Source of the DNA: Sphingomonadales bacterium | GTDB lineage: Bacteria; Pseudomonadota; Alphaproteobacteria; Sphingomonadales; Sphingomonadaceae | Direction of reading: 5' to 3' | Assembly: GCA_031408195.1 (NCBI GenBank) | Contig: JANNVL010000082.1 | Location: 16,298-80,297, forward strand | DNA: 64,000 nucleotides | Shown here: positions 16,081-45,000 of the stretch, piece by piece | Numbering within the stretch: position 1 is the first letter of the stretch | Layout of the letters: each line of letters begins with the position of its first letter | Made by a program: the position numbers and the translations under genes | Notes under the pieces: generated by a model | Seen by the model: only the letters and a program-made list of their open reading frames with translations | Databases searched by the model: none | What the model was told of the DNA's origin: nothing

Positions 16081-16147
16081 TTATTCGGGACCGGTCGGGT
16101 AGCGCTGTCAGGCACAAGGACGCCCGACCGTAGATGACCCGACCCGA

Positions 16148-30046: not shown

Positions 30047-30197
30047 ACCGATCCCCTTTTTCGTTTCGGAGCGATTATCGGATCTCGGCCCGATTGACGC
30101 ATCTTCGCCTCTGGTTCGTTAATAACTTGTTGCCAGCCCCGTTACGACCTGACGAAAACACTTACGAACGTGCGGCAAGAACCCTTCGCCGCAGAAA

Positions 30198-30464: not shown

Positions 30465-30475
30465 GCGAGTGATCG

Positions 30476-31540
30476 TTACAGCATCAATGCGCCGTGGTCG
30501 AGATGCGGCAGGACGTGTCGGGCGAACAGGTCTGCTTCTGCGGCGTGCGGATAACCCGAAAGGATGAATGCCTCGATCCCCTCTGCCTGATAGGCGCGCA
30601 GCTTTGCCAGCACCTTATCCGGGTCGCCGACGATGGCGGCTCCGCAACCTGAGCGCGCGCGACCGATCCCGGTCCACAGATTGTCCTCGACATAGCCCTC
30701 ATCGCCCGCCGACGCGCGCAATTCTGCCTGGCGCAGCACGCCGACACTGGTCGAATCGAGCGACTTCGCACGGATCGCGTCGCCGGTTTCGGCATCGAGT
30801 TTCGACAGCAGCCGCGACGCATAGGCCCGCGCTTCGGTCTCGGTTTCGCGTACGATGACATGCGCGCGATAGCCATATTTAAGCGTGCGACCGTGGCGAG
30901 CAGCACGGGCGCGCATGTCACCGATGATCTCGCGCACGGCGGGCATGGTGTCGGGCCACATCAGATAAACGTCGCACCCTTGTGCAGCGGCCTCGCGCGC
31001 GTCTTCCGATAGACCGCCGAAGTATAGCGGTGGACATTTGCCGCTGACCGTCGTCATGCGCGGCGGGTCGATGTCGATCTTATAGTGTTCGCCGTGGGCC
31101 GAGAGATGTTCGCCGTTGAGCAAGGCCTTAAGGATTTTCATGACTTCGAGTGTGCGGGCGTAACGCGGCGCGCTCGCCAGCTTGTCGCCGGGCAGGTCCG
31201 ATGAGATGATGTTCACCGTCATCCGTCCGCCGGTAATCCGGTCGAGCGTCGCAATCTGGCGCGCCAATTGCGGCGGCCAGCTCTCGCCGATGCGGACCGC
31301 CATCAGCAGGCGGATACGGCTGGTGAGCGCAGCAATCGCCGCAGCAAAGGCGGTGGTATCGAGGCCCAACTGATAACCGCTCGGCAACAGGATATTGTCG
31401 AACCCGCCCTTTTCGGCGGTCAGCACGATGTTGCGGCAATGCTCCCACGATGACGCGAGCGCGGGGTCAGGTTGGCCGAGGAATTCATAGTCATCGTCGC
31501 ACAGTGCCGAAAACCAGCTGACTTCGCATTGTCCGCTCAC
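30476..31540 (-). CDS. smoC: LLM-class flavin monooxygenase, sulfoquinovose monooxygenase (SmoC/SquD)-like
   Basis: EVSWFSALCDDDYEFLGQPD..SSWEHC, NIISSD, LYFGG, DVYLMWP and LWTGIGRARSGCGAAIVG closely match my recollection of SmoC. GTG start at 31540 overlaps the AKR stop. Confidence 0.75.
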   Translation of the reverse strand: MSGQCEVSWFSALCDDDYEFLGQPDPALASSWEHCRNIVLTAEKGGFDNILLPSGYQLGLDTTAFAAAIAALTSRIRLLMAVRIGESWPPQLARQIATLDRITGGRMTVNIISSDLPGDKLASAPRYARTLEVMKILKALLNGEHLSAHGEHYKIDIDPPRMTTVSGKCPPLYFGGLSEDAREAAAQGCDVYLMWPDTMPAVREIIGDMRARAARHGRTLKYGYRAHVIVRETETEARAYASRLLSKLDAETGDAIRAKSLDSTSVGVLRQAELRASAGDEGYVEDNLWTGIGRARSGCGAAIVGDPDKVLAKLRAYQAEGIEAFILSGYPHAAEADLFARHVLPHLDHGALML

Positions 31541-32454
31541 GGCAATTTCTCCCCGCGCGAGGCCACCAATACCGCATACCAGCTCTCGCGTGTCCAACTG
31601 ATCTTATAGGCGTCGGCGGCTTCGCGGATGCGGTCGACATGCTGCGACCCGACAATGGGGATGGGGCGGGCGGGGTGCGCCATGATCCAGCTATAGGCGG
31701 CGGCGGTTCGCGATACCCCGTGCGCGTTTGCAACGCTGTCGAGTGCTGCCGCAACTGCCGTCTCGCGCGCATTGGTCGGGTTGGCAATCCGCCCCCCGCC
31801 GAGCGGCGACCACGCCATCGGCGCAAGATCGTATTGCATGGCGATGTCGAGCGTCCTGTCCTGAATAGCGCTTAGTTCGAGCGGCGAAATCTCGGGCTGG
31901 ATCGTCGAGAGCGTGATACCGTGCGCGGGCATAAGCGCTTGCAGCGTGCGGGTCTGCGCGGGGGTGAAGTTCGACACCCCGAAAGCGCCGATCTTGCCAA
32001 GCGCATAGGCTTTCTCGGCAAATTTTGCGATTTCGTGCGGGTGGGTGAGGATGTCGGGGCGGTGGATCTGATAGAGATCGACGCGGGGGATGCCCATTCG
32101 CCGAAGTGAGGCATCAAGCGCGGCGTCGAGATAAGCTGGTGAACTGTCATAGGGCAACGGCGGCATGATCCCGCCCTTGGTTGCCAGCACCATGCGGTCA
32201 CGCAGATGCGGAGCTTCGGCAAAAACTTGCCCCAACAGCGTCTCCGCGTTGCCGAACCCGCCGCTGCCGTCGAAGCCATAGATGTCGGCGGTGTCGAGCA
32301 GGGTGATCCCCGAGTCGAGCGCCGCCTCGACCAGCGCCCGCGCCTCGACAACACTGCGTCCGGCAAAGCGCCACATCCCCCATGCCATCGACGAAATGAC
32401 GATCCCGCTCTTGCCAAGTAGGCGCGTCGCGGGGACGGGGGGAAGGGTGGACAT
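31537..32454 (-). CDS. smoB: Aldo/keto reductase, 6-oxo-glucose reductase (SmoB/SquF)-like
   Basis: WGMWR, DTADIYG, LATKGG, YQIHRPD, GVSNF, MAWSPLGGG; coupled to the smoC-like gene. Confidence 0.7.
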   Translation of the reverse strand: MSTLPPVPATRLLGKSGIVISSMAWGMWRFAGRSVVEARALVEAALDSGITLLDTADIYGFDGSGGFGNAETLLGQVFAEAPHLRDRMVLATKGGIMPPLPYDSSPAYLDAALDASLRRMGIPRVDLYQIHRPDILTHPHEIAKFAEKAYALGKIGAFGVSNFTPAQTRTLQALMPAHGITLSTIQPEISPLELSAIQDRTLDIAMQYDLAPMAWSPLGGGRIANPTNARETAVAAALDSVANAHGVSRTAAAYSWIMAHPARPIPIVGSQHVDRIREAADAYKISWTRESWYAVLVASRGEKLP

Positions 32455-32473
32455 CAGCGTAATAGCTCCGGCG

Positions 32474-32489
32474 TATGACAGCGATGTCT
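32474..32489 (-). promoter_or_regulatory. LacI-type operator, copy A
   Basis: Minus strand reads AGACATCGCTGTCATA, identical to 33621-33636; pseudo-palindrome with central CG; about 20 nt upstream of the AKR ATG. Confidence 0.8.
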
Positions 32490-32514
32490 TATAGGCGAGA
32501 GGGAGGGGGTGGGG

Positions 32515-33519
32515 TCAACCCACCCGCGCCGTACTCGATCTCACCACCAGTTCGTGTTGCAACCGCCGGTGCTCGACCCCGTCGACTTTCTCGAACAACA
32601 AATTGGCTGCCGCAAAGGCAAGATCGCGGGTCGGCTGGCGGATCGTCGTCAACGGAGGCCACACCAGTTGCGCCAGTGGCGTGTCGTCGAACCCCGCCAC
32701 CGACAGATCGTCGGGCAAAGTCAGCCCCTTGCTGTGGGCCACCGTCAGCACACCTGCCGCCATATCGTCATTCGACGCGAAGATTGCGGTCGGGCGGCGG
32801 GGATAGCTGAGCAGTGAGTGCGCCGCGACAACGCCGCTGGCGAAGTCGAATTCTCCGGGGTGGACAAGGCCCGGCTCATATTCGATCCCTGCGCGGTCGA
32901 GCGCGCGGCGGTATCCGAACAGGCGCTGTTCGCTCGCCATATGGTTGGGGTGGCCGACAATGAACCCGATGACCCGGTGGCCCAGATTGATGAGGTGCGT
33001 CGTCATATCGTCCGCCGCCTGTACATCGTCCATATAGACGGACGAGGTCAGCGCATGGTTAGTGCCCGGTGAAATCCGCACGAACGGGATGCCGCGCCGT
33101 TCAAGTTCGGCGAGCACCGGCGCGCAATCGGTGACGGGAGACGACAGGATGATGCCGTCGACATGCGTTTCGTCAATCAGGCCGCCGACTTCCGCTGCGA
33201 TGCTTTCCGAAGCGACGTCGGCGGGCTGAGCGAGCATCCGCACGCCCGCTTCACGACACCGCGCCCAGACGCCTTCCTGAACGGCATGGATGTAATAGGG
33301 CGAGTGGTTGTCATAGATCAGCGCAATCTGGTGCGAGCGTTTGCCCGCCAGCGAGCGTGCCGCCAGGCTGGGGCTGAAGGCCAGCGCGGCCATTGCCGCC
33401 TCGACTTTCGCACGGGTGTCGGCGCGGACATAGCGTTCCTTGTTGAGGACGCGGCTCACCGTTTTGATCGACACGCCCGCCGCGCGCGCCACATCGTTGA
33501 TCGTATTGCGCGATGCCAT
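32515..33519 (-). CDS. LacI-family transcriptional regulator
   Basis: TINDVARAAGVSIKTVSRVLN HTH, IFASNDDMA, SVAGFDD, LTTIRQP. Confidence 0.95.
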   Translation of the reverse strand: MASRNTINDVARAAGVSIKTVSRVLNKERYVRADTRAKVEAAMAALAFSPSLAARSLAGKRSHQIALIYDNHSPYYIHAVQEGVWARCREAGVRMLAQPADVASESIAAEVGGLIDETHVDGIILSSPVTDCAPVLAELERRGIPFVRISPGTNHALTSSVYMDDVQAADDMTTHLINLGHRVIGFIVGHPNHMASEQRLFGYRRALDRAGIEYEPGLVHPGEFDFASGVVAAHSLLSYPRRPTAIFASNDDMAAGVLTVAHSKGLTLPDDLSVAGFDDTPLAQLVWPPLTTIRQPTRDLAFAAANLLFEKVDGVEHRRLQHELVVRSSTARVG

Positions 33520-33620
33520 GTGCGTACCCCTGTGGCGTTGTTGTAACCGCGCAACACCGTCCGGCGCAACGACTCTCGCCCCTTGCGGACCGTATCGATT
33601 CCATGCGAATGCACAATTTC

Positions 33621-33636
33621 AGACATCGCTGTCATA
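33621..33636 (+). promoter_or_regulatory. LacI-type operator, copy B
   Basis: AGACATCGCTGTCATA, 21 nt upstream of the Gfo/Idh/MocA ATG; identical to copy A. Confidence 0.8.
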
Positions 33637-33657
33637 AGCAGTGGTGCGGGGAGGAAG

Positions 33658-34734
33658 ATGACGCTGCGCTACGGCCTTGTCGGCACCGGCATGATGGGCA
33701 TCGAGCACATCAACAATGTCGCGATCACGCCGGGTGCCGAGATCGTGGCGCTCGCCGATCCTGTCGATACGTCGCTGTCCTGGGCAAAGAATGCGCTGGG
33801 CGAAGGTGCCACTCCGCAAGTGTTTTCTAGCGCCGCCGAACTGGCCAACGCAGGTCTCGATGCCGTGATCGTCGCCAGCCCCAACTACACCCACCGCGCG
33901 GTGCTTGAACCGCTGTTCGATGCAGGCCTCAACATCCTGTGCGAAAAACCAGTGGCGACGATCGTCGAGGACGCGCGCTGGATCGTCGAGCGCGCCGCGC
34001 AGTCTCCGGGCATTTTCTGGACCGCGATGGAATATCGCTTCATGCCGCCCGCCGCCGAATTCGTTCGGCAGGTGCACGACGGGCGCACCGGCAAATTGCA
34101 GATGCTCAGCATCCGCGAGCACCGATTCCCCTTCTTGCCGAAGGTCGGAGACTGGAACCGTTTCGCCGAAAACACTGGCGGGACGATGGTCGAGAAATGC
34201 TGCCATTTCTTCGACCTGATGCGCCTGATTATCGGCAGCGAGGCGGTGCGCGTCTTTTGCTCGGGCGCAATGGACGTGAACCATCTCGACGAGACCTACG
34301 ATGGTCGCACACCCGACATAATCGACAACAGCTATACGACAGTGGACTTTGCCAATGGCGTGCGGGCGATGCTTGACCTGTCGATGTTTGCCGAAGGGGC
34401 GGAGAATCAGGAAGAGATTACGGCGGTCGGCGACAAGGCGCGGCTCGATTGCCTGATCCCGGCCGGCGACCTCGTGTTTTCCCCACGCACCGGGTTCATG
34501 CAGCCCAAGGCCGTGACGCGCGAGCATGTTGCGGTCGAGGCCCATGCGCTGAACGCCGGGCACCACCATGGCGCGACCTTTTACCAGCACCAGAAATTCT
34601 GTGCTGCCGTGAAAGGCGAGGGTGCCGTAGAAGTATCTGCGACCGACGGGATGATGGCGGTCGCCATCGGCACCGCCGCCGAAATCAGCGCACGCGAACA
34701 CCGCGTCGTCGAGATGAGTGAATTGGGTTTCTAA
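33658..34734 (+). CDS. Gfo/Idh/MocA-family protein, probable NAD+-dependent sulfoquinovosidase (GH188, SqgA-like)
   Basis: GTGMMG, CEKP, MEYRF, REHRFPFLPKVGDWNRF, GGTMVEKCCHFFDL. Start ATG 33658 after GGGGAGG. Context fits a SQ locus. Confidence 0.75.
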   Translation: MTLRYGLVGTGMMGIEHINNVAITPGAEIVALADPVDTSLSWAKNALGEGATPQVFSSAAELANAGLDAVIVASPNYTHRAVLEPLFDAGLNILCEKPVATIVEDARWIVERAAQSPGIFWTAMEYRFMPPAAEFVRQVHDGRTGKLQMLSIREHRFPFLPKVGDWNRFAENTGGTMVEKCCHFFDLMRLIIGSEAVRVFCSGAMDVNHLDETYDGRTPDIIDNSYTTVDFANGVRAMLDLSMFAEGAENQEEITAVGDKARLDCLIPAGDLVFSPRTGFMQPKAVTREHVAVEAHALNAGHHHGATFYQHQKFCAAVKGEGAVEVSATDGMMAVAIGTAAEISAREHRVVEMSELGF

Positions 34735-34786
34735 TCAAACAAATGGCAACGGCCACGGGCCGCGCCACACGCAGGAAGGACGAAAA

Positions 34787-37177
34787 ATGACCAAGACCCT
34801 GATGATGGCAAGTGTTGCCGGTTTTGCCCTGATTACCGCTGCCCCCGCGCTGGCGCAGGGTGCCGCTCCGGCAGCCGAGGACGGCGCACCTGCCGAAATC
34901 GTCGTCACCGCGCAAAAGCGCACCGAGCGTCTGCAGGACGTGCCGGTTGCGGTCAGCGTCATTTCGGGCGCGTCGCTCGAAGCCAAGGGCGGTGTGAACA
35001 TCGAGAGCGCGCAGTATCTCGTGCCCACCTTGAACTTCCGCAAATCGGGCGCCGCGATCAACCAGTCGCTGTTCCTGCGTGGTGTCGGCACCTCGACTTT
35101 CTCGATCGCCGGTGAGCCTTCGGTTTCGACCGTTGTCGACGGCGTCGTGTTTAGCCGCGCGGGCGAAGCATTTAGCGATTTGGTCGATATCGAGCGGATC
35201 GAAGTGCTGCGCGGGCCGCAGGGCACATTGTTCGGCAAGAACGCGAGCGCGGGCGTGGTCAACATCGTGACCAAAAAGCCGACCAAGGATCTGGAAGGCT
35301 CGGTCGAAGCAAGCTATTTCGACCGCAGCGAGTTCAAGGGACGTGCGGTCATCAACCTGCCGTTTAGCGACACAGCGGGCATCCGCGTCACCGGCTTCTA
35401 CGGTAAGTATAACGGCAATATCTTCAACGCGGCAGCCAATGTGAACCGCAATGTCAACGGTTACGAGCGTTATGGCTTCCGCGCGACCATCGTCGGCGAA
35501 ATTACGCCCGACCTGATCGCCACGATCAGTGCCGACTGGCGCAAAGCGAACGACGAATGCTGTGCGGAAGTGATCGGCGGCATCAACCCGACCGGCACCG
35601 CCATCGCGCCGCCGACTGGCCTCGCGTTGCTCGCGCTGGCCGGCACCAACTTCGCTGGCGATCAGTCGCGCATCATTCGCCAGAACCTGATCACGGCAAG
35701 CCGTCAGACGAGCTATGGCACGTCAGTGCAGCTCGATTGGCAGCTCGGCACGCAAACGGTCACATCGATCACCGCCTTTCGTGCCTATAACGAGCTTGAA
35801 GTTCGCGACGGCGACTTCGTCGATACGGCGTATAACGGTTTGAACCAGTTGCACGACGTAGGGCCGCAGACGGGTCGCACCTTCACGCAGGAATTCCGCC
35901 TGACCTCGCCGGGCGGCCAGTTCTTCAACTATGTGCTGGGTGCCTTCTACAGCTGGGCGAAAACCGACCGCACTTTCACGCGCAACGACATCGTCTGCAA
36001 CTCCACGCCCGCACCGACGGTGCTGATCCCTTGCGGATCGATCGGGACAAACCCGCCGCCAGCATCGACTTTCCCGACGGGCACAGCGACCTTTGGCTCG
36101 GTGTTCAAGAACCTCGCGTTCTTTGGACAGGGCACGATCAATATTGCCGATAACTTCCGCCTGATCGCCGGTCTGCGTTACACGGCGGATCAGCTCGATG
36201 TATCCCTCGGCCGTACGACGGCGCTTGCGGGACCGGGCATCCAACCGAACTTCGACGCGGGCGTGTTCAACAACGGCGCAACCAATCCAGCAGGCGGGTT
36301 TATCGCGGGTCCGTCGAACGGTGTGCCGTTCACGAACAAGGCCACCAGCACCAACTGGTCGGGCAAGGCAGGCGCGCAGTTCGACCTGAGCCGCAACTCG
36401 ACCGTCTACGCAACCTATTCGCGTGGCTATAAGGGGCCGGCGTTCAACATCTTCTTCAACCTGACCGCGACCGGTTCAGGCGTGATCGACCCCGAAACCT
36501 CGGACGCGTTCGAAATCGGCGCGAAGAACACGTTGTTCGGTGGCAAGCTCGTGCTGAACCTCGCGGCCTATTACGCGAAGTACAAGAACTTCCAGGCCAA
36601 CAACCCCGACATCGTCGCGGGCGTGGTGGTGACGCGGTTTACGAACGCGGGCGACATTTCGACCCGCGGCATCGAAGCGGACTTCATCCTCCGTCCGGTG
36701 CGCGACCTCAACATCTCGGGCGGCGTCGCCTATACCGATGCGAAGGTCGATGCGTTCCGCGCACCGCCGGGCGCTGCGGCCACAGCGATCGTGCCGTCGG
36801 GAACGCCGCTCGCCTATGCACCGAAGTTCAAGGCATCACTGGGCGTCGATTACCGCTGGCGCACCGGTGGCAGCATCGACGCACGCTTCGGCGCGCAGGG
36901 ATCGTACCAGTCGAGCCAGTTGTCGCTGTTCGACCCGAATCCAATCGTGCGCGAAGCGGGCAGGATCAAGGCCTATGGGCTTGTCGATCTGTCGGCAGGG
37001 ATCATCAGTGCCGATGATCGCTATAGCCTGACGCTTCAGGTCAAGAACGCGTTCAACCAGAGCTTTGCCGCGGCCATCACCAACGGTGGACCGGGCGGTG
37101 CCTACCGCTACCTGATCCCGCGCGAGGCTGACCGGTATTTCGGCGTGACCGGCAAGATCAGCTTCGGCGGTCGCTGA
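34787..37177 (+). CDS. TonB-dependent receptor
   Basis: Signal peptide, TonB box EIVVTAQKR, LRGVGT, DIERIEVLRGPQGTLFGKN, terminal beta strand. Start ATG 34787. Confidence 0.95.
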   Translation: MTKTLMMASVAGFALITAAPALAQGAAPAAEDGAPAEIVVTAQKRTERLQDVPVAVSVISGASLEAKGGVNIESAQYLVPTLNFRKSGAAINQSLFLRGVGTSTFSIAGEPSVSTVVDGVVFSRAGEAFSDLVDIERIEVLRGPQGTLFGKNASAGVVNIVTKKPTKDLEGSVEASYFDRSEFKGRAVINLPFSDTAGIRVTGFYGKYNGNIFNAAANVNRNVNGYERYGFRATIVGEITPDLIATISADWRKANDECCAEVIGGINPTGTAIAPPTGLALLALAGTNFAGDQSRIIRQNLITASRQTSYGTSVQLDWQLGTQTVTSITAFRAYNELEVRDGDFVDTAYNGLNQLHDVGPQTGRTFTQEFRLTSPGGQFFNYVLGAFYSWAKTDRTFTRNDIVCNSTPAPTVLIPCGSIGTNPPPASTFPTGTATFGSVFKNLAFFGQGTINIADNFRLIAGLRYTADQLDVSLGRTTALAGPGIQPNFDAGVFNNGATNPAGGFIAGPSNGVPFTNKATSTNWSGKAGAQFDLSRNSTVYATYSRGYKGPAFNIFFNLTATGSGVIDPETSDAFEIGAKNTLFGGKLVLNLAAYYAKYKNFQANNPDIVAGVVVTRFTNAGDISTRGIEADFILRPVRDLNISGGVAYTDAKVDAFRAPPGAAATAIVPSGTPLAYAPKFKASLGVDYRWRTGGSIDARFGAQGSYQSSQLSLFDPNPIVREAGRIKAYGLVDLSAGIISADDRYSLTLQVKNAFNQSFAAAITNGGPGGAYRYLIPREADRYFGVTGKISFGGR

Positions 37178-37185
37178 TTCGAATG

Positions 37186-37225
37186 AGTTGCCAGCGGGCA
37201 CCCAAAAGCTGCTCCGCTGGCAACT
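37186..37225 (+). terminator. Intergenic stem-loop after the TonB receptor (terminator or RNA stabiliser)
   Basis: 12-bp perfect stem AGTTGCCAGCGG/CCGCTGGCAACT with no strong U tract. Confidence 0.5.
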
Positions 37226-37249
37226 TCCGATTAAGGGGCTGAAAGCAGC

Positions 37250-38137
37250 ATGGTGCGACCATCGTTCCTCCTTGATCGGACCGACGCTAAGCTGTTCGTA
37301 TGCGGTCGCACAAACGGAACAATACCCGTTCTGATACTGGCAGCATTGCTCGGTATCGACGCGGATGTTGCGCGGGCCGAAGCACCGGTTGATCCTGCGA
37401 GGATGGCAACAGAAAGTTGCGATCCGCAGGCTGCATCGCAATCACCAACGGGCGTCTATGTGCCCGCAATACGACCCCCCGAAACATCCTCCGGCACCAC
37501 GCGATATCGCCCGCCGGGCGACTGGCCATGGCTCTGCCGATATCGTGCAGACAATCAGGCCGCCCTGACTCTTGCTCCGCCGGAAATCGTCTTCTACGGG
37601 GATTCAATCACCGAAAACTGGGCAAAGATCGACCCCGCTTTTTTCAGCCGCTCCGCCATCAATCGAGGCATCAGTGGTCAAACTTCTGCCCAGCTCCTCC
37701 TGCGGTTTTATCAGGATGTCGTCGCCCTGCGTCCTCGCAAGGTTCACATTGTCGTGGGAACCAACGATATCGCCGGCAATCCGGGCGCTCTCGACGCGCA
37801 AAGCTACAAGAACAACATGCTTGCCATGGTCGACCTTGCACGGATCCATCGTATCAAGGTCATCCTGGGCAGCGTTCCTCCGGCGGCACGCTTTCCTTGG
37901 CGGAGCGAAGTGCCAGCGCTGGTCAAATTCGAACCGGTGCGCGAAATCCAGGACTTGAACCTCTGGTTGCAGAGGCTTGCGAAGGAACGCAATCTCATGT
38001 TCGTTAACTATCACGACGCAATGGCCGATGTCGACGGCGCGATGCAGACCGCCTTGACGCGAGACGGGGTTCACCCAAACGCCAAAGGATATGAGGTGAT
38101 GCGCCGAATGGCAGTGACAGCGGTGGCGAAGCCATGA
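37250..38137 (+). CDS. SGNH/GDSL hydrolase (esterase/lipase), probably exported; start uncertain
   Basis: Blocks GDSIT, RGISG, GTND and DGVHP. ATGA overlap with the MFS gene. Confidence 0.88.
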   Translation: MVRPSFLLDRTDAKLFVCGRTNGTIPVLILAALLGIDADVARAEAPVDPARMATESCDPQAASQSPTGVYVPAIRPPETSSGTTRYRPPGDWPWLCRYRADNQAALTLAPPEIVFYGDSITENWAKIDPAFFSRSAINRGISGQTSAQLLLRFYQDVVALRPRKVHIVVGTNDIAGNPGALDAQSYKNNMLAMVDLARIHRIKVILGSVPPAARFPWRSEVPALVKFEPVREIQDLNLWLQRLAKERNLMFVNYHDAMADVDGAMQTALTRDGVHPNAKGYEVMRRMAVTAVAKP

Positions 38138-39408
38138 ATGCAAGTCGGCAAGATGAGCTTGGTCGGCACGCGCCGTGCGAGAGCCGGGGTAGGGCGAGCA
38201 TCCTCTCCCCGGCGCGCGCATGGACTTTGTTCGCGCTGCTCTGCGTCGCGGGCATTTTCAATCTTATGGATCGCCCGATCATTGCGATCCTGAAACCCGA
38301 TATGTCGGCCGATCTCGGCTGGACCGATGCCGAATTCGGGCGATTGGCGCTTATCACGCAACTCGCCGCCGCGTCCTCGTTCCTGTTCACCGGCTGGTTG
38401 ATCGACAAATTGGGCATCTGGCGCTCGATGGTCGCGGGTGTTTCAGCGTGGAGTTTCGCAGCGATGGCGCACGGCTGGGCGTTTGCCGGATGGCAGGTCG
38501 TTGCCGCGCGCGTTGGCCTCGGCGTCACCGAAGCGATGCAGACGCCGCTGACGGTCAAGACTGCCGCCACATTATTCCCGAAAGAACGCCGCTCGCTCGC
38601 GCTCGGCATCAATACGCTGATTGGCAGCGCGGGGACGATCCTGTTGCCGTTCTTCATCCCCATTATGGCTGTCACAATGGGCTGGCGCGGCGCGTTGCTG
38701 TTTGCAGGCATCGGCGGATTCGTAACGCTTGCCGCTTGGCTCGCGGTCGCGCGCGGGGTGAAGTTCGACGATGCGGCGGAGGACGAGCACCTCGATTTCT
38801 CCGACGATGGCAAGCCCTATGGCCCGATCCTGCGCGAGCGGCGGACATGGGCGATCGTCATTGCCAAGGCGCTGTCGGATTCGACCTTCTGGCTGCTGAC
38901 GTTCTGGCTGCCCGACTTTTACCGCAAGACCTTCGACCTTTCGACGTCCGAACTGGCCATTCCGATGGCGCTTGCCTTTGCAGGGTCTGCTATCGGCGGG
39001 CTGACGGCGGGGATCGTGTCGACGCGGCTGATCGCGCAGGGGTGGGATGTGCTGCGCGTTCGTCGCGTCGTTATGCTCGTTTCCGCCCTGATCGTCGTGC
39101 CGGTGCCCTTCGTGCTGCAACTGAACAGCATTTGGCCCATCGCCTTTATGATGGCGGTTGTGCTCGCCGGACACCAGGGATTCTCGTTGTCGATCTTTGG
39201 CCTCATTACCGATGTTGTGCCGCGCTCGAAGGTTGGGCGGGTGACCGCGTTCGGTGCGTTCTGCGGCAATGTCGCGGGCGGGTTACTGGTCTATGGCGTC
39301 GGCCTCGCTCTAACAGCGGGTTATAGCTTCACGCCGTTCTTCATGTTTGCGGCAGTGTCGTATCTGCTTGCAATCGGCTGGCTACGGATGGTTATGCCGC
39401 GCGGGTGA
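38134..39408 (+). CDS. MFS transporter (ExuT/ACS-like sugar-acid type)
   Basis: About 12 hydrophobic segments; MDRPII, GWLIDKLG, RVGLGVTEA, FPKERRSLA, FWLPDF. Confidence 0.85.
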   Translation: MNASRQDELGRHAPCESRGRASILSPARAWTLFALLCVAGIFNLMDRPIIAILKPDMSADLGWTDAEFGRLALITQLAAASSFLFTGWLIDKLGIWRSMVAGVSAWSFAAMAHGWAFAGWQVVAARVGLGVTEAMQTPLTVKTAATLFPKERRSLALGINTLIGSAGTILLPFFIPIMAVTMGWRGALLFAGIGGFVTLAAWLAVARGVKFDDAAEDEHLDFSDDGKPYGPILRERRTWAIVIAKALSDSTFWLLTFWLPDFYRKTFDLSTSELAIPMALAFAGSAIGGLTAGIVSTRLIAQGWDVLRVRRVVMLVSALIVVPVPFVLQLNSIWPIAFMMAVVLAGHQGFSLSIFGLITDVVPRSKVGRVTAFGAFCGNVAGGLLVYGVGLALTAGYSFTPFFMFAAVSYLLAIGWLRMVMPRG

Positions 39409-40454
39409 CCGAACGACGCAGCCTGCCGCTTGCCGCCGACCTTTATGGCGATCTGCTCGACGTTGCGCCTGCCGGGCCGGTCGGGCTGACTGCCTATTTC
39501 CCCGGGCTTGTCCTGACCATCGTGGCGGCGCTGGCGGCGGCTTATCTGTCCGAACATTACGGCGCGCCGATCATGCTGATGGGCTTGCTCATCGGCTTGG
39601 CGTTCAATTTCGCCAATGCCGATGTGCGCCTGCATCCCGGACTTGGGTTTGCCTCGAAGACCCTGTTGCGCTGGGGCATTGTGCTGGTCGGGTTGCAGGT
39701 GACTTTCGGCGAGATTGCGAGCCTCGGAGCACCTGCTTTCGCCGCCATTGCGGCAATGGTCGCGCTAGTGACGCTCAGCGGCACGGTCATGTCGAAATGG
39801 ATCGGACGCGGAGCCGCCTTTGGGACATTGGCAGGGGGCGCGGTTGCCATCTGCGGCGCGTCGGCCGCACTCGCGCTGTCGAGCGTGCTCGGTGAAAAGC
39901 GCACGTCGCAGGCGCAATTGACGCTGGTGCTGGTGGCGGTGTCGGCGGCGAGCGCGCTGGCGATGTCGCTCTATCCAGTGTTGGCGCAGTTGCTCGATCT
40001 AACCGACCGGCAGGCCGGGTTCCTGATGGGCGCGTCGATCCATGACGTCGCGCAAGCGCTGGGCGCGGGCTATTCCTACTCGCCCGAGGCCGGTGCGACG
40101 GCGACAGTCGTGAAGCTGACGCGCGTGGCATTGTTAGCACCCGCGCTTGCAGTCGTGGCCTACGCCTATCGCGACGAAGCAGGCGTGAAGCGCGGCGGCG
40201 TTGGCGTACCGTGGTTCGTGCTCGGCTTCCTGGGCCTGTGTGCCCTGCATTCGCTGGTCGCGCTGCCCCAGCCTGTGCTCGACGCGGCCAAACCAACTGC
40301 GACCGCGCTGCTGGTGCTCGCGGTGACTGCGACGGGCATCCGATCACCGATGAACCTGCTGCTCGAACAGGGGTGGCGCGCATCTATGCCAGTGATCGCG
40401 GCGACAATCGTATCGTTCGTGCTCGCGCTCGGTGCCGCGCTGATTCTCGTCTAA
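39405..40454 (+). CDS. YeiH/TauZ-family putative sulfite/sulfate exporter
   Basis: LLRWGIVLVG, GGAVAICGASAA, GASIHDVAQA, VVKLTRV, VPWFVLGF. GTGA overlap with the MFS gene. Confidence 0.85.
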   Translation: MTERRSLPLAADLYGDLLDVAPAGPVGLTAYFPGLVLTIVAALAAAYLSEHYGAPIMLMGLLIGLAFNFANADVRLHPGLGFASKTLLRWGIVLVGLQVTFGEIASLGAPAFAAIAAMVALVTLSGTVMSKWIGRGAAFGTLAGGAVAICGASAALALSSVLGEKRTSQAQLTLVLVAVSAASALAMSLYPVLAQLLDLTDRQAGFLMGASIHDVAQALGAGYSYSPEAGATATVVKLTRVALLAPALAVVAYAYRDEAGVKRGGVGVPWFVLGFLGLCALHSLVALPQPVLDAAKPTATALLVLAVTATGIRSPMNLLLEQGWRASMPVIAATIVSFVLALGAALILV

Positions 40455-40539: not shown

Positions 40540-40646
40540 ACGGCCCGCCTACCCGAGCCTCGGGACAGAAAAAGGGGCCGGTTGAGTCGGTCATCTTTCG
40601 CACCCTCGATATTCACTCGAAGCCGGTGCGCCGGAGCGGAGATTTT

Positions 40647-42230
40647 ATGGCCTCGTTCAAACGCTTTACCAAAGTCATGCTGTCGGGCGCGTCGTTCGCG
40701 GCGCTCGCGGCCTGTGGTGCCAGCGATATTGCTTCGCCAGGGACTGGCGGCAATGTCACGATCAACAATGTCACGCCTGCCCCGACGCCGACCCCCACGC
40801 CTACGCCGACCGGCGTGACCCCCGCTGGCGGTTGCCCGACGATTGCGTCGGATCAGGGCACGATTACTGGCACGACCGGTACCTATCGCGTCTGCCGTCT
40901 GCCCAATTTGATCACGTCGTCGATCAGCCTGCCCAAGGTTGCCGGGTTGCTTTACGAGCTCAACGGTCGCGTCAATGTTGGTTGCGATGGCGGCTTTGCA
41001 GCCCCGACCGCCGCTGCACCAGTGGCCTCTACAACGATCGGTTGCGGCAATCTGACTGCCGATACGGCAGTGACCCTGACGATTGCCCCGGGCGTCATCC
41101 TTTATGGATCGACCGGACAGTCATGGCTCGCCGTCAATCGCGGCAACCAAATCCAGGCCGTCGGCACGGCCGCAGCCCCGATCGTGTTCACGAGCCGCGA
41201 CAATGTTCTTGGCATCAATGATGACACATCGCAGGGGCAATGGGGCGGGGTTGTCCTGATGGGCCGCGGCGTCGTCACTGACTGCAACGTCGGCTCGACC
41301 GCCGCGAACACCTGCGAGCGCGACACCGAGGGCGCAGCCGATCTCGCGCGCTTCGGCGGCACGAACAATGCGTACAACGCGGGCCGGATGAGCTTTGTCC
41401 AGATCCGCTATTCGGGGTTCGTGCTCGGCGCGAACCGCGAGCTTCAGGCCTTGACGACCGAAGGTATCGGCACAGGCACAGTCCTGAACAATATCCAGTC
41501 GCACAACAGCTCTGACGACGGCGCGGAGTTCTTCGGCGGCGCGATCAACATGAAATACTATATTGCGACGGGGGCCGATGACGACAGCCTCGACGTTGAC
41601 ACCGGCGCGCAGATGAATGTCCAGTATGCGCTGCTCCTGCCACGGGCGACGAAGGGCGATGCGCTGTTCGAAATCGACAGCAACGGACTCGAAACCGACC
41701 TGCCGCGCACGCGCCTCAACGTCGCCAACTTTACCGCGATCCAGTCAGTAGCGAGCGCCGACAACGAGGCGAACGATCTTGCCGCCGCACTTTTCCGTGG
41801 CAATTCGGACACGACGCTGGTGAACGGCCTGATCATTACGCCGAACAACGAATGTATCCGGATGAACGGGTCCGGGACCACGCCGGTCACTCTGGCAGTC
41901 CGGTCGGTGGCGATGCAGTGTAACGCGACCAAATATCTCGGGTCGGGCTCGCTTACCGCAGCGCAGGTCGCCGCCGCATTTGCGACCGGCACGAATAACA
42001 ACAACGACAGTTTCACAGCGTCGCTCGCCAACGTTTTCATCAACGGCGCGAACGAAACCGCCGTGGTCGGGACCGATCCGAAGACAATCAATGCGTTCTT
42101 CGACACGACGACATGGGCCGGTGCGGTGCGAAACAGCACCGACACCTGGTACGCCGGATGGACCTGCAACAGCGCGACAGTGAATTTTGGTGCGGGTTCG
42201 ACGTCGTGCACGTCGCTGCCCACGACCTGA
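40647..42230 (+). CDS. Exported lipoprotein, ElpS-like by synteny
   Basis: Lipobox LAAC, PAPTPTPTPTPT linker, repetitive Gly/Asn/Asp beta-rich body with DDG/DDD motifs. First gene before the TBDR and gsp genes. Start ATG 40647. Confidence 0.7.
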   Translation: MASFKRFTKVMLSGASFAALAACGASDIASPGTGGNVTINNVTPAPTPTPTPTPTGVTPAGGCPTIASDQGTITGTTGTYRVCRLPNLITSSISLPKVAGLLYELNGRVNVGCDGGFAAPTAAAPVASTTIGCGNLTADTAVTLTIAPGVILYGSTGQSWLAVNRGNQIQAVGTAAAPIVFTSRDNVLGINDDTSQGQWGGVVLMGRGVVTDCNVGSTAANTCERDTEGAADLARFGGTNNAYNAGRMSFVQIRYSGFVLGANRELQALTTEGIGTGTVLNNIQSHNSSDDGAEFFGGAINMKYYIATGADDDSLDVDTGAQMNVQYALLLPRATKGDALFEIDSNGLETDLPRTRLNVANFTAIQSVASADNEANDLAAALFRGNSDTTLVNGLIITPNNECIRMNGSGTTPVTLAVRSVAMQCNATKYLGSGSLTAAQVAAAFATGTNNNNDSFTASLANVFINGANETAVVGTDPKTINAFFDTTTWAGAVRNSTDTWYAGWTCNSATVNFGAGSTSCTSLPTT

Positions 42231-42252
42231 TCGCAAACCACCTCAACACCGG

Positions 42253-42280
42253 CGGGGGCAGCTTCCTGGGGCTGCCCCCG
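42253..42280 (+). terminator. Intergenic stem-loop between lipoprotein and TonB receptor
   Basis: CGGGGGCAGC-TTCCTGGG-GCTGCCCCCG, 10-bp stem followed by TATTT. Confidence 0.55.
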
Positions 42281-42309
42281 TATTTGCACCCGAAATTGGG
42301 GGATTGAAA

Positions 42310-45000
42310 ATGTTGAAGCCGCTGCACCTCGCGCGGATATTGCTGGCATCGTCGGCGCTGGCAGCACCTTCGTTTGCGTTTGCGTTCGCGCAAGCCACCG
42401 CACCGGCGACGACCACGCCACCTGCTGACGCTCCGGCGACTGCCGAATCCGCTCCCGAAGCGCCCGCGCAGGAAGAGGTCGAAATTTCAGCGCCCGGTGC
42501 GAACGAGATTGTCGTGACGGGGCGGCGCGACCGTAACATTGCCAAGACATCGGATCAGGTCGTGTCAGTGCTCGGTGCCGCTGAAATCGCGCGCACAGGC
42601 GACGGCAACATCGCGGGTGCGCTCGGTCGCGTGACCGGCCTCAGCGTCGTCGGCAGCGGATTCGTCTATGTGCGCGGTCTTGGCGACCGCTATTCGCTGG
42701 CGCTGCTCAACGGGTCGCCTTTGCCCAGCCCCGAGCCGCTTCGCCGGGTCGTGCCGCTCGACATTTTCCCGAGCGGCGTTATCGCGTCGTCGCTTGTCCA
42801 GAAAAGCTATTCGGTGAACTACCCCGGCGAGTTCGGCGGCGGGGTCATCAACCTGACCACCCGCGCCGTCCCGCGCGAACCGTTCTTCAATGTCGGTATC
42901 GGCATGTCGGGCGACAGCGAAACGACAGGCAACATCGGCTATACCTATTATGGTGCGCGCTGGGACAATCTCGGCTTCGACAACGGCGTCCGCAACACGC
43001 CCGCGCCGCTCGCCGCTTTCCTCGCGAGTGGCGCGCGGACCAGCTCGGGCACCGTCAACACCTCGGCGATCGCCAATGGCCTCGTCACCGGCCAGAACGG
43101 CGTGATCCAGCGCTGGCAGGTAGCACCCAATTTTTCGGCGAACATTACCGGCGGGCGATCCTTTCCGCTTGGCACCGGGGAACTCGGCGTGATCGCCGCG
43201 GTGGGGTACAACAACAAATACACGACGCGGCAGGCGCTGCGTCAGGCGTCGCTCAGCGCCGATGTCTCGACGCTGGAGTCGAACTTCAACGAGGTCAACA
43301 CCGACCAGCGTATCGTCGTCAACGGTTTGCTCGGCCTCGGCTATGAGTGGGACGATCACAAGATCCGCATCACCAATCTCTATATCCGCGACACGATCAA
43401 GCAGGCGCGGCTGTCGCTCGGCAACCGTCAGGGAACCGGTGTCGATTACCAGCAACAGAAGACTGCTTGGTACGAACGCCAGCTGATCAACACGCAATTC
43501 GTCGGCGAGTATAAGCTGGCCGATGGGCTTCGGCTCGACCTGCGTGCGGCTTATGCCAATTCGCAGCGCGAAGCGCCCGGCGAGCTGTTCCTCGAGTATG
43601 TCCGCACCAATTCCACCGCCGATCCCCTCGGCCGGTTTTTCGTCAACCGTCTCAACAACGGCAATGGCGGTGATGCGCGCATCACTTATTCGGACCTGAA
43701 TGAAGATCTGTATTCGGCCAGTGCCGACCTCAGCTACCGTATCAATGACCGGCTGAGCGCGACCATCGGCGGGGCGTGGGGCGACACCAAGCGCACCAGT
43801 TCGCGTCGCGATTTCCAGTTTCAGGCACCCGGCAATTTCCCGAGCGGCGTCGGCCTATTGCGGCCCGACCTGCTGCTCGGCGCGAACGTCATCAATGCGT
43901 TCCGGATCGCGCTCATCGAAACCGACGAGGGCAACCCCGCGTTTTTTGCCCGGCTGAAGAATTATGCCGGCTATGCAAAGTTCAATGCCAAGTTCACTGA
44001 CACGCTCAGCCTCGATGCCGGTGTCCGCTATGAAAGCGCGACACAGACGGTGACACCGGTGCAGGTCTTTACGGTGCCGGGTGCATCGACCGCCGGAACC
44101 AGCCTCAAGCGCAACTATTGGTTGCCTGCCGCAACGCTGACCTGGGAGGTCGATAACGGGATGCAGGTGCGCCTCAGTGCTTCCAAAACCATCGCTCGCC
44201 CGCAGTTCCGCGAACTCATCAACCAGCCCTATTTCGACCCCGATTCCAACCGTCAATATCGCGGAAATCCGCTGCTGGTCGATAGCCAGCTCTACAATGC
44301 CGAAGCGCGCTTCGAATGGTATTTCGCGCCCGAACAGCGACTGTCGGTTTCGGGCTTTTACAAGAAAATCGACAAGCCAATCGAAGCGTTCATTACTGGC
44401 GGCGACCTCGTCACCTCGTTCGCCAACGCGCCGACGGCGACCTTGTACGGGGCCGAGGTCGAGTTCCAGAAGAATTTCAATCTTGACGGGCTGTTCAAGG
44501 CGGGTGGGCTGTCCGAACGGCGCATCGTGCTGACCGCGAATTACACCTACACCAAGTCGAAAATCAAAGTGGCAACGGGCGATACGACTTCGGTGTTCGG
44601 GGCGTTTTCGTCCAGAGCGTCGGACTATTTCCGCGATGGCGGGCCGCTGACCGGCCAGTCGGACCATATCGCCAATTTGCAGATCGGGTTGGAACACCCC
44701 GACCGGCTATCGCAACAGACGATCCTGCTCGGCTATTCGAGCAACCGCGTCATCAGCCGCGGCCTCAACGGTTCGGTTCCACAGCCCGACGTCATCGAGC
44801 GCCCCGGCTTTCGCCTGGATTTTGTCGCGCGTGAGGGGATTGAAGTACTCGGCAAGGAAATCGAACTGAAGTTCGAGGCACGCAATATCACCGGCCAGCG
44901 CCACGAGGAGTTTCAGCGGTCGGGTAACAACCGCATCGATATCAACAGCTATGCAGTGGGCACGACGCTGGCGCTGTCTGCGACGGTCAAGTTCCAATAG
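42310..45000 (+). CDS. TonB-dependent receptor
   Basis: Signal peptide, EIVVTG, YVYVRGLGDRYS, PLDIFP, NPLL/NAEARFEWY barrel motifs, terminal VKFQ. Start ATG 42310. Confidence 0.92.
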   Translation: MLKPLHLARILLASSALAAPSFAFAFAQATAPATTTPPADAPATAESAPEAPAQEEVEISAPGANEIVVTGRRDRNIAKTSDQVVSVLGAAEIARTGDGNIAGALGRVTGLSVVGSGFVYVRGLGDRYSLALLNGSPLPSPEPLRRVVPLDIFPSGVIASSLVQKSYSVNYPGEFGGGVINLTTRAVPREPFFNVGIGMSGDSETTGNIGYTYYGARWDNLGFDNGVRNTPAPLAAFLASGARTSSGTVNTSAIANGLVTGQNGVIQRWQVAPNFSANITGGRSFPLGTGELGVIAAVGYNNKYTTRQALRQASLSADVSTLESNFNEVNTDQRIVVNGLLGLGYEWDDHKIRITNLYIRDTIKQARLSLGNRQGTGVDYQQQKTAWYERQLINTQFVGEYKLADGLRLDLRAAYANSQREAPGELFLEYVRTNSTADPLGRFFVNRLNNGNGGDARITYSDLNEDLYSASADLSYRINDRLSATIGGAWGDTKRTSSRRDFQFQAPGNFPSGVGLLRPDLLLGANVINAFRIALIETDEGNPAFFARLKNYAGYAKFNAKFTDTLSLDAGVRYESATQTVTPVQVFTVPGASTAGTSLKRNYWLPAATLTWEVDNGMQVRLSASKTIARPQFRELINQPYFDPDSNRQYRGNPLLVDSQLYNAEARFEWYFAPEQRLSVSGFYKKIDKPIEAFITGGDLVTSFANAPTATLYGAEVEFQKNFNLDGLFKAGGLSERRIVLTANYTYTKSKIKVATGDTTSVFGAFSSRASDYFRDGGPLTGQSDHIANLQIGLEHPDRLSQQTILLGYSSNRVISRGLNGSVPQPDVIERPGFRLDFVAREGIEVLGKEIELKFEARNITGQRHEEFQRSGNNRIDINSYAVGTTLALSATVKFQ

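Follow-up and report, generated by a model that had tools for sequence, protein, structure and literature searches.

An SGNH esterase gene next to a TonB-dependent receptor gene in a sulfoquinovose operon: a candidate sulfolipid deacylase

The locus described here raises the question of whether a bacterial operon for the use of sulfoquinovose (SQ) may also encode an enzyme that removes the acyl chains of the sulfolipid SQDG. Few organosulfur compounds on Earth are as abundant as SQDG, and approximately 10 billion tonnes of SQ are made yearly; to our knowledge, all described bacterial SQ pathways start from SQ or SQ-glycerol. The initial annotation held that the bacterial enzymes which deacylate SQDG are poorly defined; this was borne out by papers and reviews from 2022–2026, which still call them unidentified and credit 'non-specific lipases' with the reaction (PMC13436972, PMC12780224, PMC8940949). 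Within a window of 64,000 nucleotides (the whole stretch of DNA that was analyzed), we examined an SGNH/GDSL esterase gene located between the genes for a TonB-dependent receptor (TBDR) and an MFS transporter (Table 1). We assign a probability of about 0.5 to the reading that its product is an accessory enzyme, either periplasmic or secreted, which deacylates acylated SQ-glycerol, i.e., lyso-SQDG or SQDG.

Table 1. Predicted features of the SQ locus and of its SGNH esterase gene (positions in the window)
Feature	Position	Strand	Basis
SmoC/SquD-like SQ monooxygenase	30476..31597	-	PDB 7oh2 1.7e-110, 7olf 2.7e-109
SmoB/SquF-like aldo-keto reductase (6-oxo-glucose reductase)	31537..32454	-	PDB 7bbz 1.2e-48
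LacI-type operator copy, 5' of smoB-smoC arm	32471..32489		Paired inverted repeat
LacI-family repressor	32515..33519	-	Pfam LacI + Peripla_BP_3
LacI-type operator copy, 5' of sqgA	33621..33639		19-nt inverted repeat
SqgA, NAD+-dependent sulfoquinovosidase (GH188), leads plus-strand operon	33658..34734	+	PDB 8qc2 2.7e-105, 8qc3 1.2e-100
TonB-dependent receptor (TBDR1), SQ-cluster subfamily	34718..37177	+	Pfam Plug + barrel
Stable hairpin in 72-nt TBDR-SGNH gap, no U tract	37185..37226	+	Folding vs shuffles
SGNH/GDSL esterase gene (295 aa)	37250..38137	+	ORF + translation
Predicted Sec signal peptide, aa 1-43, cut after A-R-A	37250..37378	+	Hydrophobic core + conserved motif
N-terminal linker, aa 44-90	37379..37519	+	Motifs SSCDPQ, TGVYxPA, Cys57 clade-conserved (alignment A1)
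Catalytic SGNH domain, aa 91-295	37520..38134	+	pLDDT, Foldseek, alignments
Ser119 codon	37604..37606	+	
Asn172 (within GTND)	37757..37768	+	
Asp272/His275 (within)	38063..38074	+	
MFS transporter, anion:cation type (D-galactonate transporter family)	38134..39408	+	MFS_1 2.2e-41, TIGR00893 4e-30
YeiH/PF03601 membrane protein, candidate sulfite/sulfate exporter	39405..40454	+	PF03601 2.2e-57, TIGR00698

By its gene content, the host locus is a predicted sulfo-SMO SQ locus of a Sphingomonas-like bacterium, in which the genes for SmoC, SmoB and a LacI-family repressor are followed by those for SqgA, TBDR, the SGNH protein, the MFS transporter and YeiH. The PDB entries matched by SqgA correspond to FlSqgA (8qc2) and ArSqgA (8qc3), and its sulfonate loop, EHRFPFLPK, retained the sulfonate-binding Arg and Lys; the neighbors of the SGNH gene are predicted to be true SQ enzymes. 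YeiH was conserved in related SQ clusters and was also present in L003 and in contig C67 of genome G323. The two operator copies were 95% complementary, so that one pair frames both arms. No terminator-like site was found in the TBDR-SGNH gap, and none above chance level from sqgA to yeiH; the 91-nt stretch which holds the hairpin in this gap had a folding energy of -40.8 kcal/mol (z = -3.8), and none of 200 shuffles folded as well. The stop codon of the SGNH gene (TGA, 38135–38137) overlaps the start codon of the MFS gene (ATG, 38134–38136) in an ATGA, and the MFS gene is predicted to be translationally coupled to the SGNH gene. As far as the DNA sequence tells, the SGNH gene is a member of the LacI-controlled sulfo-SMO operon.

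Compared to the smo cluster of Agrobacterium tumefaciens and the squ cluster of Novosphingobium aromaticivorans (sulfo-SMO/sulfo-ASMO), the window shares homologs of SmoC/SquD and SmoB/SquF and, with N. aromaticivorans, the lack of a flavin reductase in the cluster. It differs in possessing the GH188 enzyme SqgA where these clusters have a GH31 sulfoquinovosidase, in having TBDR, MFS and YeiH proteins where they have the SmoEFGH ABC system, and in the extra esterase. No esterase was described in the clusters discussed in the literature on SQ gene clusters, and we found no published functional data on an esterase or lipase in SQ clusters, on the closest PDB structures or on glacier-stream SQ cycling.

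The SGNH product matched PF13472 (Lipase_GDSL_2) with an E-value of 2.7e-25 and a score of 90.3 bits (cut-off 32.9). All four blocks of the SGNH superfamily were present, including block I (G117-D118-S119), block II (G143, GISGQT), block III (G170-T171-N172-D173) and block V (D272-G-V-H275), and were invariant or near-invariant across alignments A1 and A2. In the AlphaFold model, the catalytic domain was compact (~205 aa), lacked a lid and had pLDDT values mostly above 90, and the N-terminal 90 residues were of low confidence (pLDDT below 50 at residues 61–90). The modeled structure has a three-layer alpha/beta/alpha, flavodoxin-like fold, and Foldseek matched it to 3p94 with an E-value of 4e-21 and a TM-score of 0.93 (0.88–0.93 over 3p94 and 4hf7). 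The gene is under purifying selection, with dN/dS values of 0.14–0.21 (about 0.15) against its orthologs.

Several features are consistent with export of the protein. Residues 23–34 form a hydrophobic core (Kyte-Doolittle 2.3–2.7), followed by A-R-A and, after the cut, E; the cleavage-site motif, VARA followed by E or Q, was kept in 15 orthologs (alignment A1), and the n-region is unusually long (~22 aa). A Cys pair conserved in the SGNH clade, C57 and C96, also fits export, and we infer a periplasmic or secreted protein; a type II secretion system lies adjacent. A lipoprotein was rejected on the basis of the predicted cleavage site, which has no lipobox, and a Tat signal on the basis of alignment A1, in which no twin arginine was conserved among orthologs. 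A role as a cytoplasmic sulfogluconolactonase was rejected because the protein has a predicted export signal. Thus, the ORF, the Pfam match, the alignments and the hydrophobic core confirmed what had first been noticed: an exported-looking SGNH hydrolase with four catalytic blocks, located between TBDR and MFS genes and joined to the latter by an ATGA.

Sequence comparison places the protein in a BT0569/BDI_0976-like subfamily. In a phmmer search, residues 89–294 matched 3p94 (E = 4.3e-45) and 4hf7 (E = 2.4e-42). Four SGNH proteins of Bacteroidales from structural genomics, BDI_0976 (3p94), BT0569 (4hf7), BACUNI_03406 (4iyj) and BF3764 (4ppy), belong to the same subfamily, with E-values of 4e-45 to 3e-37, 39–43% identity in the catalytic domain and TM-scores of 0.85–0.93. 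They are uncharacterized, and their catalytic blocks are identical to those of the window protein, but they lack the Cys-containing N-terminal extension of the proteobacterial proteins, the six-residue insert at positions 222–227, K126 and R134. We know of no SQ or TBDR context for these four proteins. An identity as TesA/lysophospholipase L1 was rejected, as no thioesterase I chain was present among the 30 PDB matches at E <= 0.01; entries labeled 'lysophospholipase L1' among these matches are the Phocaeicola sialate esterase. The JGI name of the gene, 'lysophospholipase L1-like esterase', derives solely from a COG label.

The characterized relatives bear on a different reading, in which the enzyme is a short-chain esterase that works in the periplasm, strips acetyl or another small acyl group from a glycoside which either contains SQ or is co-imported, and does not act on long-chain sulfolipid. 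All characterized structural neighbors are acetyl-specific, the nearest being sialate O-acetylesterase, PAF acetylhydrolase Ib, acetylxylan esterases and isoamyl-acetate esterase, and the matches to the first two are distant (E = 1e-8 and 1e-3, 20–25% identity). For glycans, a periplasmic esterase that acts after a TBDR is a known scheme: SGNH esterases of TBDR/PUL loci de-acetylate imported oligosaccharides, and the logic is the same, with TonB-dependent import, periplasmic de-esterification, inner-membrane uptake and a cytoplasmic glycosidase. These periplasmic acetyl esterases and the sialate O-acetylesterase of Phocaeicola vulgatus (6njc, 7pzg) share the fold of the window protein, but only 22–25% identity, and it is glycans from which they strip acetyl. 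PAF acetylhydrolase Ib subunits (1wab, 1es9; E about 1e-3, a weak match) also have the SGNH fold and act on an ester of a glycerolipid, but they are cytosolic, eukaryotic, acetyl-specific at sn-2 and very distant in sequence. Acetyl-specific SGNH enzymes resemble the window protein in the GTND of block III and in I120, T171 and V274, at positions reported to bound a small acetyl pocket in PAF acetylhydrolase Ib, and the compact domain without a lid is also consistent with a small acyl group. However, no O-acetylated SQ conjugate from nature is known to us, and the SQ reviews consulted mention none; the only natural SQ esters known to us are the acylglycerol esters SQDG and SQMG (sulfoquinovosyl monoacylglycerol, lyso-SQDG) and 2'-O-acyl-SQDG. 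In addition, the NCBIfam model of the acetylxylan esterase AxeA1 (NF042968) gave a partial match over residues 153–285 that was far under its cut-off (34.1 bits vs 700), by which this identity was rejected, and the companion esterases of the clade gene in two other loci (L016 and L097) belong to the HSL family of carboxylesterases or lipases. We consider an acetyl esterase unlikely.

The clade of the window protein is rare, as only about 15 sequences were found among 5.8 billion clusters, and lies within a very large, uncharacterized esterase family. An ortholog occurred in only 1 of the 41 genomes near the window (G000) and a clade member in 1 of 401 Burkholderiales genomes, which was already known to carry it. 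A scan of metagenome contigs with a clade-specific degenerate DNA pattern for DWPWxCRYRADN detected one locus only, L099, which is closely related to the window, and no new lineage carrying the clade. The clade contexts comprised the window, L001, L099, L003/4, L015, L016, L095, L096, L097, L098, L155 and L156, and a TBDR gene was found immediately upstream of the SGNH gene in 11/11. The best genome-wide match of these receptors elsewhere was the window TBDR1, with scores two-fold those of the next best (356–469 vs 155–234 bits), and TBDR orthologs came after SqgA in 13 of 18 related clusters. The SQ-subfamily TBDR and the SGNH protein are thus predicted to form a conserved two-gene module.

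Wherever the flank was long enough, SQ genes were present downstream of this pair, in four architectures, spread over at least three lineages in which the TBDR shares only about 38% identity with that of the window. The first is the sulfo-SMO arrangement of the window, with SqgA, SmoC and SmoB. The second, in L016, contains SqgA (8qc3, 9e-96), a SmoF-like binding protein of an ABC importer (7nbz, 9e-118) and two HSL-type esterases. The third, in L095, contains sulfo-ED-like genes (PF00920 and PF03328, which are sulfo-ED markers; Kaur et al., Table S3), and the fourth, in L003 and L156, an SQ-type MFS transporter and YeiH. Extra carboxylesterases were located beside the clade gene in L003, L015, L016, L096, L097 and L155, in keeping with a substrate that carries two or more ester bonds; in the PDB, the companion HSL-type esterase had a generic match ('esterase/lipase'), which says nothing of the substrate. 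A search for SmoC in the L016 and L015 genomes was empty; therefore, this lineage lacks sulfo-SMO, and a dehydratase ortholog was found beside LacI and YeiH instead.

As a control, we examined 78 broad-family loci: neither SqgA nor SmoC occurred within 10 kb, and the single match to the SmoB-like reductase was weak (32% identity). Their immediate neighbors were heterogeneous (126 Pfam families among 101 neighbors), and in none of the 78 was a TBDR-SGNH pair followed by SQ genes. In its catalytic motifs, the clade does not differ from the broad family, for which there is no SQ link; the positions specific to the clade are K126, R134, P178, D182, S185 and the insert. These clade-specific changes cluster beside catalytic blocks I and III, and the basic residues K126 and R134 are invariant. 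The clade genes are thus consistently linked in the genome to genes for the uptake and catabolism of SQ, as would be expected of the sulfolipase class. Bacterial sulfolipases (SQDG/SQMG acyl hydrolases) are a functional class that has no defined sequence family.

Searches with tblastn and a profile HMM did not detect the SGNH gene in 18 sulfo-SMO clusters of the same family, and it was also absent from 4 clusters whose LacI proteins are at least 90% identical, including that of Sphingomonas sp. SUN039 (CP096972.1). In total, 22 related clusters, near-identical ones included, lack the gene, so that growth on SQ or SQ-glycerol does not require it; it is an accessory gene and not a core sulfo-SMO component. 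In SUN039, the MFS gene directly follows the TBDR gene in an otherwise equivalent operon, and the 91-nt hairpin stretch is part of the missing segment. The GC3 of the SGNH gene was 0.632, compared to 0.73–0.78 in neighboring genes, and the gene looks like a recent horizontal insertion between the TBDR and MFS genes. The idea that this clade would recur in other SQ clusters and accompany smoC thus held in part: it occurred in four architectures but not in the 22 sphingomonad relatives, and smoC was present in the window but not found in the genomes of L016 and L015.

The anomalous GC3, the absence from the closest relatives and the occurrence of the broad family in unrelated contexts also favor an exported housekeeping esterase, involved for example in lysolipid detoxification or envelope maintenance, which landed here by horizontal transfer and has no specific SQ role. 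This is improbable in view of the invariable TBDR pairing, the recurrence of SQ genes across architectures and lineages, the coupling to the MFS gene, the purifying selection and the clade-specific residues near the active site, all of which argue against it.

If the protein is a sulfolipid deacylase, the following scheme may be proposed, in which we infer the substrate, its acyl chain length, the compartment of action and the cargo of the receptor. Ester-bearing SQ glycosides from phototroph membranes would reach the periplasm via TBDR, or, with a secreted enzyme, would be hydrolyzed extracellularly; SQMG is the most plausible substrate, and possibly SQDG is used too. The Ser119/Asp272/His275 triad, with an oxyanion hole of Gly143 and Asn172, would cleave the acyl ester and release sulfoquinovosyl glycerol, which would be imported by the MFS transporter and cleaved by SqgA. 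SmoC and SmoB would then convert SQ to glucose and sulfite, and YeiH would export the sulfur anion. We know of no precedent for TBDR uptake of any glycerolipid, which weakens the import of intact diacyl SQDG put forward in the initial annotation; the lyso form or extracellular action is more plausible. SmoF was reported to bind a short-chain SQDG analog, and its authors proposed uptake of both SQMG and SQDG (PMC8940949). What stands of the original suggestion of an SQDG or lyso-SQDG lipase is an intact, probably exported esterase in an SQ operon, from a narrow clade that is SQ-linked in several independent architectures and lineages, and what counts against it is that the closest characterized relatives are acetyl esterases and not lipases. 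A more specific proposal, which we offer only tentatively, is that TBDR and the SGNH protein form a dedicated module for lyso-sulfolipid uptake and deacylation, mobile across sulfo-SMO, sulfo-ED and other SQ pathways, whose receptor would import an amphiphilic sulfoquinovosyl acylglycerol and whose enzyme would be a head-group-specific periplasmic 'sulfolipase' releasing SQ-glycerol and fatty acid, with K126 and R134 possibly reading the sulfonate.

Known sulfolipases, such as the SQDG acyl hydrolase of Scenedesmus obliquus, a galactolipase of Chlorella kessleri and non-specific esterases of the mammalian gut, convert SQDG to SQMG and then to SQ-glycerol (PMC12780224, PMC10755693, PMC11968277), but they are eukaryotic and non-specific and, unlike the window protein, have no coding linkage to SQ catabolic genes. 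SGNH enzymes are often promiscuous and the known algal sulfolipases are non-specific galactolipases (PMC12780224), but a broad acyl hydrolase or acyltransferase acting on MGDG, DGDG, PG and SQDG alike, whose module would therefore serve fatty-acid harvest and not the specific preparation of SQ-glycerol, is very improbable here, given that only SQ-specific genes are linked to the SGNH gene in the genomes and that no galactosidase or fatty-acid uptake genes were found beside the SGNH gene in the contexts examined.

The SGNH clade, tied to an SQ-type receptor and located beside three different SQ pathways, offers a concrete, clonable candidate for SQDG deacylation, and Sphingomonas sp. SUN039, with the same operon but no SGNH gene, provides a natural isogenic-like control. 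Because the clade is rare, its importance on a global scale is probably limited. If the enzyme is an acetyl esterase instead, it would point to an esterified SQ metabolite that is not yet known. If the tentative proposal of a dedicated module is true, no sulfolipase would have been found encoded in a locus for SQ catabolism before this one, and TonB-dependent import of a glycerolipid would likewise be new. If the sulfolipid deacylase reading is confirmed, the gene would serve as a marker for direct sulfolipid use in metagenome annotation, and some bacteria would be able to use sulfolipid without a partner organism.

The SGNH hydrolase gene of the sulfoquinovose (SQ) locus may encode a sulfolipid deacylase, a reading to which we assign a probability of about 0.5, and it is predicted to be co-transcribed with the SQ genes. 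The initial annotation had taken its surroundings to be an SQ uptake and catabolic locus, and this was borne out by matches of SmoC, SmoB and the GH188 NAD+-dependent sulfoquinovosidase SqgA to solved structures. The window SqgA retained the Arg and Lys of its sulfonate loop (EHRFPFLPK), and was followed by genes for a TonB-dependent receptor (TBDR), the SGNH hydrolase, an anion-type MFS transporter and a YeiH/PF03601 protein. One copy of a 19-nt operator preceded each arm of the locus, and no terminator-like site above chance was found between sqgA and yeiH. The 72-nt gap between the TBDR and SGNH genes, itself part of an inserted segment, contained a strong hairpin that lacked a U tract (z = -3.8); this hairpin may stabilise the mRNA or act as an attenuator, and so set how much receptor is made relative to the proteins encoded downstream. 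No flavin reductase of the SmoA/SsuE type was encoded in the SQ locus (30094-34734 of the window), a feature shared with the SQ cluster of N. aromaticivorans, likewise reported to be without one (PMC9594981).

Features of the window and gene order around other members of the SGNH clade (L numbers denote other loci)
Sequence	Feature or gene order	Position	Strand	Match or remark
Window	157-aa ORF	30094-30567		no Pfam match
Window	LLM monooxygenase		-	A. tumefaciens SmoC (7oh2, 1.7e-110)
Window	aldo-keto reductase		-	SmoB (7bbz, 1.2e-48)
Window	LacI-family repressor			between minus-strand pair and plus-strand genes
Window	SqgA		+	first plus-strand gene; FlSqgA/ArSqgA (8qc2, 2.7e-105; 8qc3, 1.2e-100)
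Window	TBDR	34718-37177	+	TBDR1
Window	hairpin	37185-37226		
Window	SGNH hydrolase	37250-38137	+	ORF, 295 residues
Window	MFS		+	
Window	YeiH/PF03601 protein	39405-40454	+	
Window	beta-helix protein, second TBDR	40626-45000		directly after SQ operon
Window	gspC/gspD type II secretion operon	45031 onward		
L001, L099	SqgA, TBDR, SGNH, MFS			as in window; YeiH too in window and L001
L003/L004	TBDR, SGNH, second SGNH, MFS, YeiH	1641-2300 (second SGNH, L003)		
L156	TBDR, SGNH, MFS			
L155	TBDR, SGNH, homologue of second SGNH	2433-2996 (homologue)		
L015, L096, L097	TBDR, SGNH, HSL-type esterase			
L098	TBDR, SGNH			
L016	TBDR, SGNH, cytoplasmic-looking HSL-type esterase, second TBDR, exported HSL-type esterase, unknown 314-aa protein	10880-16308		Burkholderiales MAG; convergent with SqgA and ABC importer
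L095	TBDR, SGNH, IlvD/Edd dehydratase, HpcH aldolase, MalK			

The YeiH/PF03601 protein was conserved in sphingomonad sulfo-SMO clusters, and it also occurred beside SGNH in L003 and near a sulfo-ED-like dehydratase in contig C67 of genome G323. Export of sulfite or sulfate in these pathways may fall to this protein, instead of to the TauE/SafE type usually cited. Synteny with Sphingomonas sp. SUN039 extended to the beta-helix protein downstream of the operon (PF28492 in relatives) and the second TBDR; L001 carried these two together with the type II secretion operon. Identities between L099 (1-5955) and the window (33658-39408) were mosaic: 95% for SqgA, 98% for TBDR, 85% for SGNH and 70% for MFS. 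MFS was the most divergent operon gene in all comparisons (67-70%), close relatives included, which suggests recombination or fast turnover of the transporter segment.

The SGNH protein matched Pfam Lipase_GDSL_2 (2.7e-25) and carried the catalytic blocks GDS (117-119), GISGQT (G143), GTND (170-173) and DGVH (272-275), whose residues were invariant or nearly so in two alignments, one with 15 and one with 54 homologues. At its N-terminus, a hydrophobic core (residues 23-34) was followed by A-R-A↓E (VARA↓E/Q in orthologues), and the protein is likely exported. Two cysteines, C57 and C96, were conserved, and the AlphaFold model was confident for residues 91-295 but not for the first 90. The MFS start codon overlapped the SGNH stop codon as ATGA. 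The ORF, alignments and N-terminal features thus agree with the earlier description of an exported-looking, four-block SGNH hydrolase placed between TBDR and MFS and coupled to the latter.

By its catalytic domain, the protein is one of a very large family (>5,000 matches scored among 8,000 candidates), whose solved members (3p94, 4hf7, 4iyj and 4ppy; 39-43% identity, TM 0.85-0.93) are uncharacterised Bacteroidales proteins. The next structural neighbours, at 20-25% identity, were acetyl esterases (sialate O-acetylesterase, PAF acetylhydrolase Ib, acetylxylan esterases and isoamyl-acetate esterase), and the protein reached the cut-off of no curated NCBIfam model. Homology therefore points to a carboxylesterase, leaning to short acyl groups. 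The reading as an acetyl esterase builds on this homology prior and on I120, T171 and V274, which would correspond to acetyl-pocket residues of PAF-AH Ib; it comes without a known substrate, and we consider it unlikely.

Within this broad family, the SGNH protein is a member of a small clade (only 14 full-length proteins at 55% identity or more to the query) with a specific motif, DWPW(L/W)CRYR, a specific 6-residue insert (positions 222-227) and invariant K126, R134, P178, D182 and S185, which adjoin blocks I and III. Genomic context was recovered for 11 members, most of them on short contigs, and a TBDR was paired with the SGNH gene in 11/11. The TBDRs preceding clade members outside sphingomonads formed one orthologous group (70-98% identity); in the whole of G000, a genome near the window that carries an SGNH orthologue, their best match was TBDR1 (356-469 bits vs 155-234 for the next best). 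A TBDR in an SQ cluster of Alteromonas macleodii has been reported to be strongly induced by SQ. In L016, SqgA matched 8qc3 (9e-96) and the binding protein of the ABC importer matched SmoF (7nbz, 9e-118), and the dehydratase and aldolase families of L095 are Pfam markers of sulfo-ED (Kaur et al., Table S3). At the sequence level, further carboxylesterases frequently accompanied the SGNH gene; its pairing with an SQ-subfamily TBDR was obligate, and it recurred beside SQ genes whatever the downstream pathway. The clade is rare and has about three truly independent lineages, since several contexts come from related metagenome projects.

L016 has the appearance of an extended "sulfolipid utilisation locus"; its second TBDR was 36-38% identical to its first, and its 314-aa protein had no Pfam match. 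The second SGNH proteins of L003 and L155 had no signal and were arylesterase-like, of the GDSLTWGW type. Sample names were similar for L003, L015, L016 and L095 (BUSI22, OTE_, VAR_; accessions JANL, JANN, JANP; a MAG/metagenome series), and it is only a guess from these names that their clade members come from one habitat type rich in phototroph biofilms.

As a negative control, we used 78 loci with broad-family members at 36-55% identity. SqgA or SmoC occurred within 10 kb in 0/78, and the window SmoB-like reductase had a single weak match (32% identity). The 101 immediate neighbours were diverse, with 126 Pfam families, and TBDR was not among the recurrent ones. It is therefore only the narrow clade that is linked to TBDR and SQ genes.

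SqgA was present in 41/301 genomes of the order. For the reverse test, 18 orthologous sulfo-SMO clusters of the same family were analyzed; they retained SmoC, SmoB, SqgA, MFS, YeiH and usually a TBDR1 orthologue, and contained neither an SGNH gene (0/18; tblastn and profile HMM) nor an HSL-type esterase (0/18). Four further clusters, one of them from the completely sequenced Sphingomonas sp. SUN039, encoded a LacI with 90% identity or more to that of the window and were syntenic over 20 kb, but MFS lay directly 3' of TBDR with no SGNH between. The LacI clustering with SUN039 marks the source organism as a Sphingomonas-like sphingomonad. Alignment showed a clean insertion between the TBDR stop and the MFS start, made up of the SGNH gene with its leader of 72 nt. 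A genome of the same genus, G317, had two SqgA copies (L130 and L140), one in a full sulfo-SMO cluster without SGNH and the other (72% identity) without SmoC/SmoB nearby. We infer that the SGNH gene is a recently acquired accessory kept by selection, not a core SQ gene, because it was absent from the clusters of relatives, its GC3 was 0.632 (vs 0.73-0.78 for every neighbour) and its dN/dS against orthologues was 0.14-0.21. In all, 22 sulfo-SMO clusters (18 + 4) are without it. A hitch-hiker gene would fit horizontal transfer and this accessory distribution, but is hard to square with 11/11 TBDR pairing, which extends to lineages whose TBDRs are only ~38% identical to that of the window, and is less probable still than an acetyl esterase. 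A non-specific thylakoid-lipid hydrolase is possible, though improbable.

As a sulfolipid deacylase, the SGNH enzyme would act before the sulfoquinovosidase and deacylate esterified SQ glycosides. Its substrate would be SQMG (lyso-SQDG, with a single acyl chain) or SQDG, since these and 2'-O-acyl-SQDG are, to our knowledge, the known natural SQ esters. SqgA needs NAD+ and must therefore be cytoplasmic, so deacylation would precede inner-membrane transport; the SQ-glycerol product would enter via MFS and be processed by SqgA, SmoC and SmoB. TBDR import of the single-chain lyso form is more plausible than that of intact SQDG. Alternatively, the enzyme might be secreted and act outside the cell, an option kept because the type II secretion operon begins 7 kb downstream. 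In the work of Snow et al. (PMC8940949), SmoF bound an SQDG analogue with short chains, and the authors proposed that SQMG and SQDG are taken up; this makes the presence of periplasmic acylated SQ-glycerols independently plausible. SQDG delipidation has been ascribed to "non-specific" lipases, the bacterial enzymes being unidentified (PMC13436972, PMC12780224, PMC8940949, PMC10755693, PMC11968277); the earlier view that these enzymes are poorly defined accords with the literature (PMC13436972, PMC12780224, PMC8940949), and the papers and reviews consulted mention no esterase in an SQ cluster. The kind of enzyme is known; its association with SQ and TBDR genes and the function implied are new.
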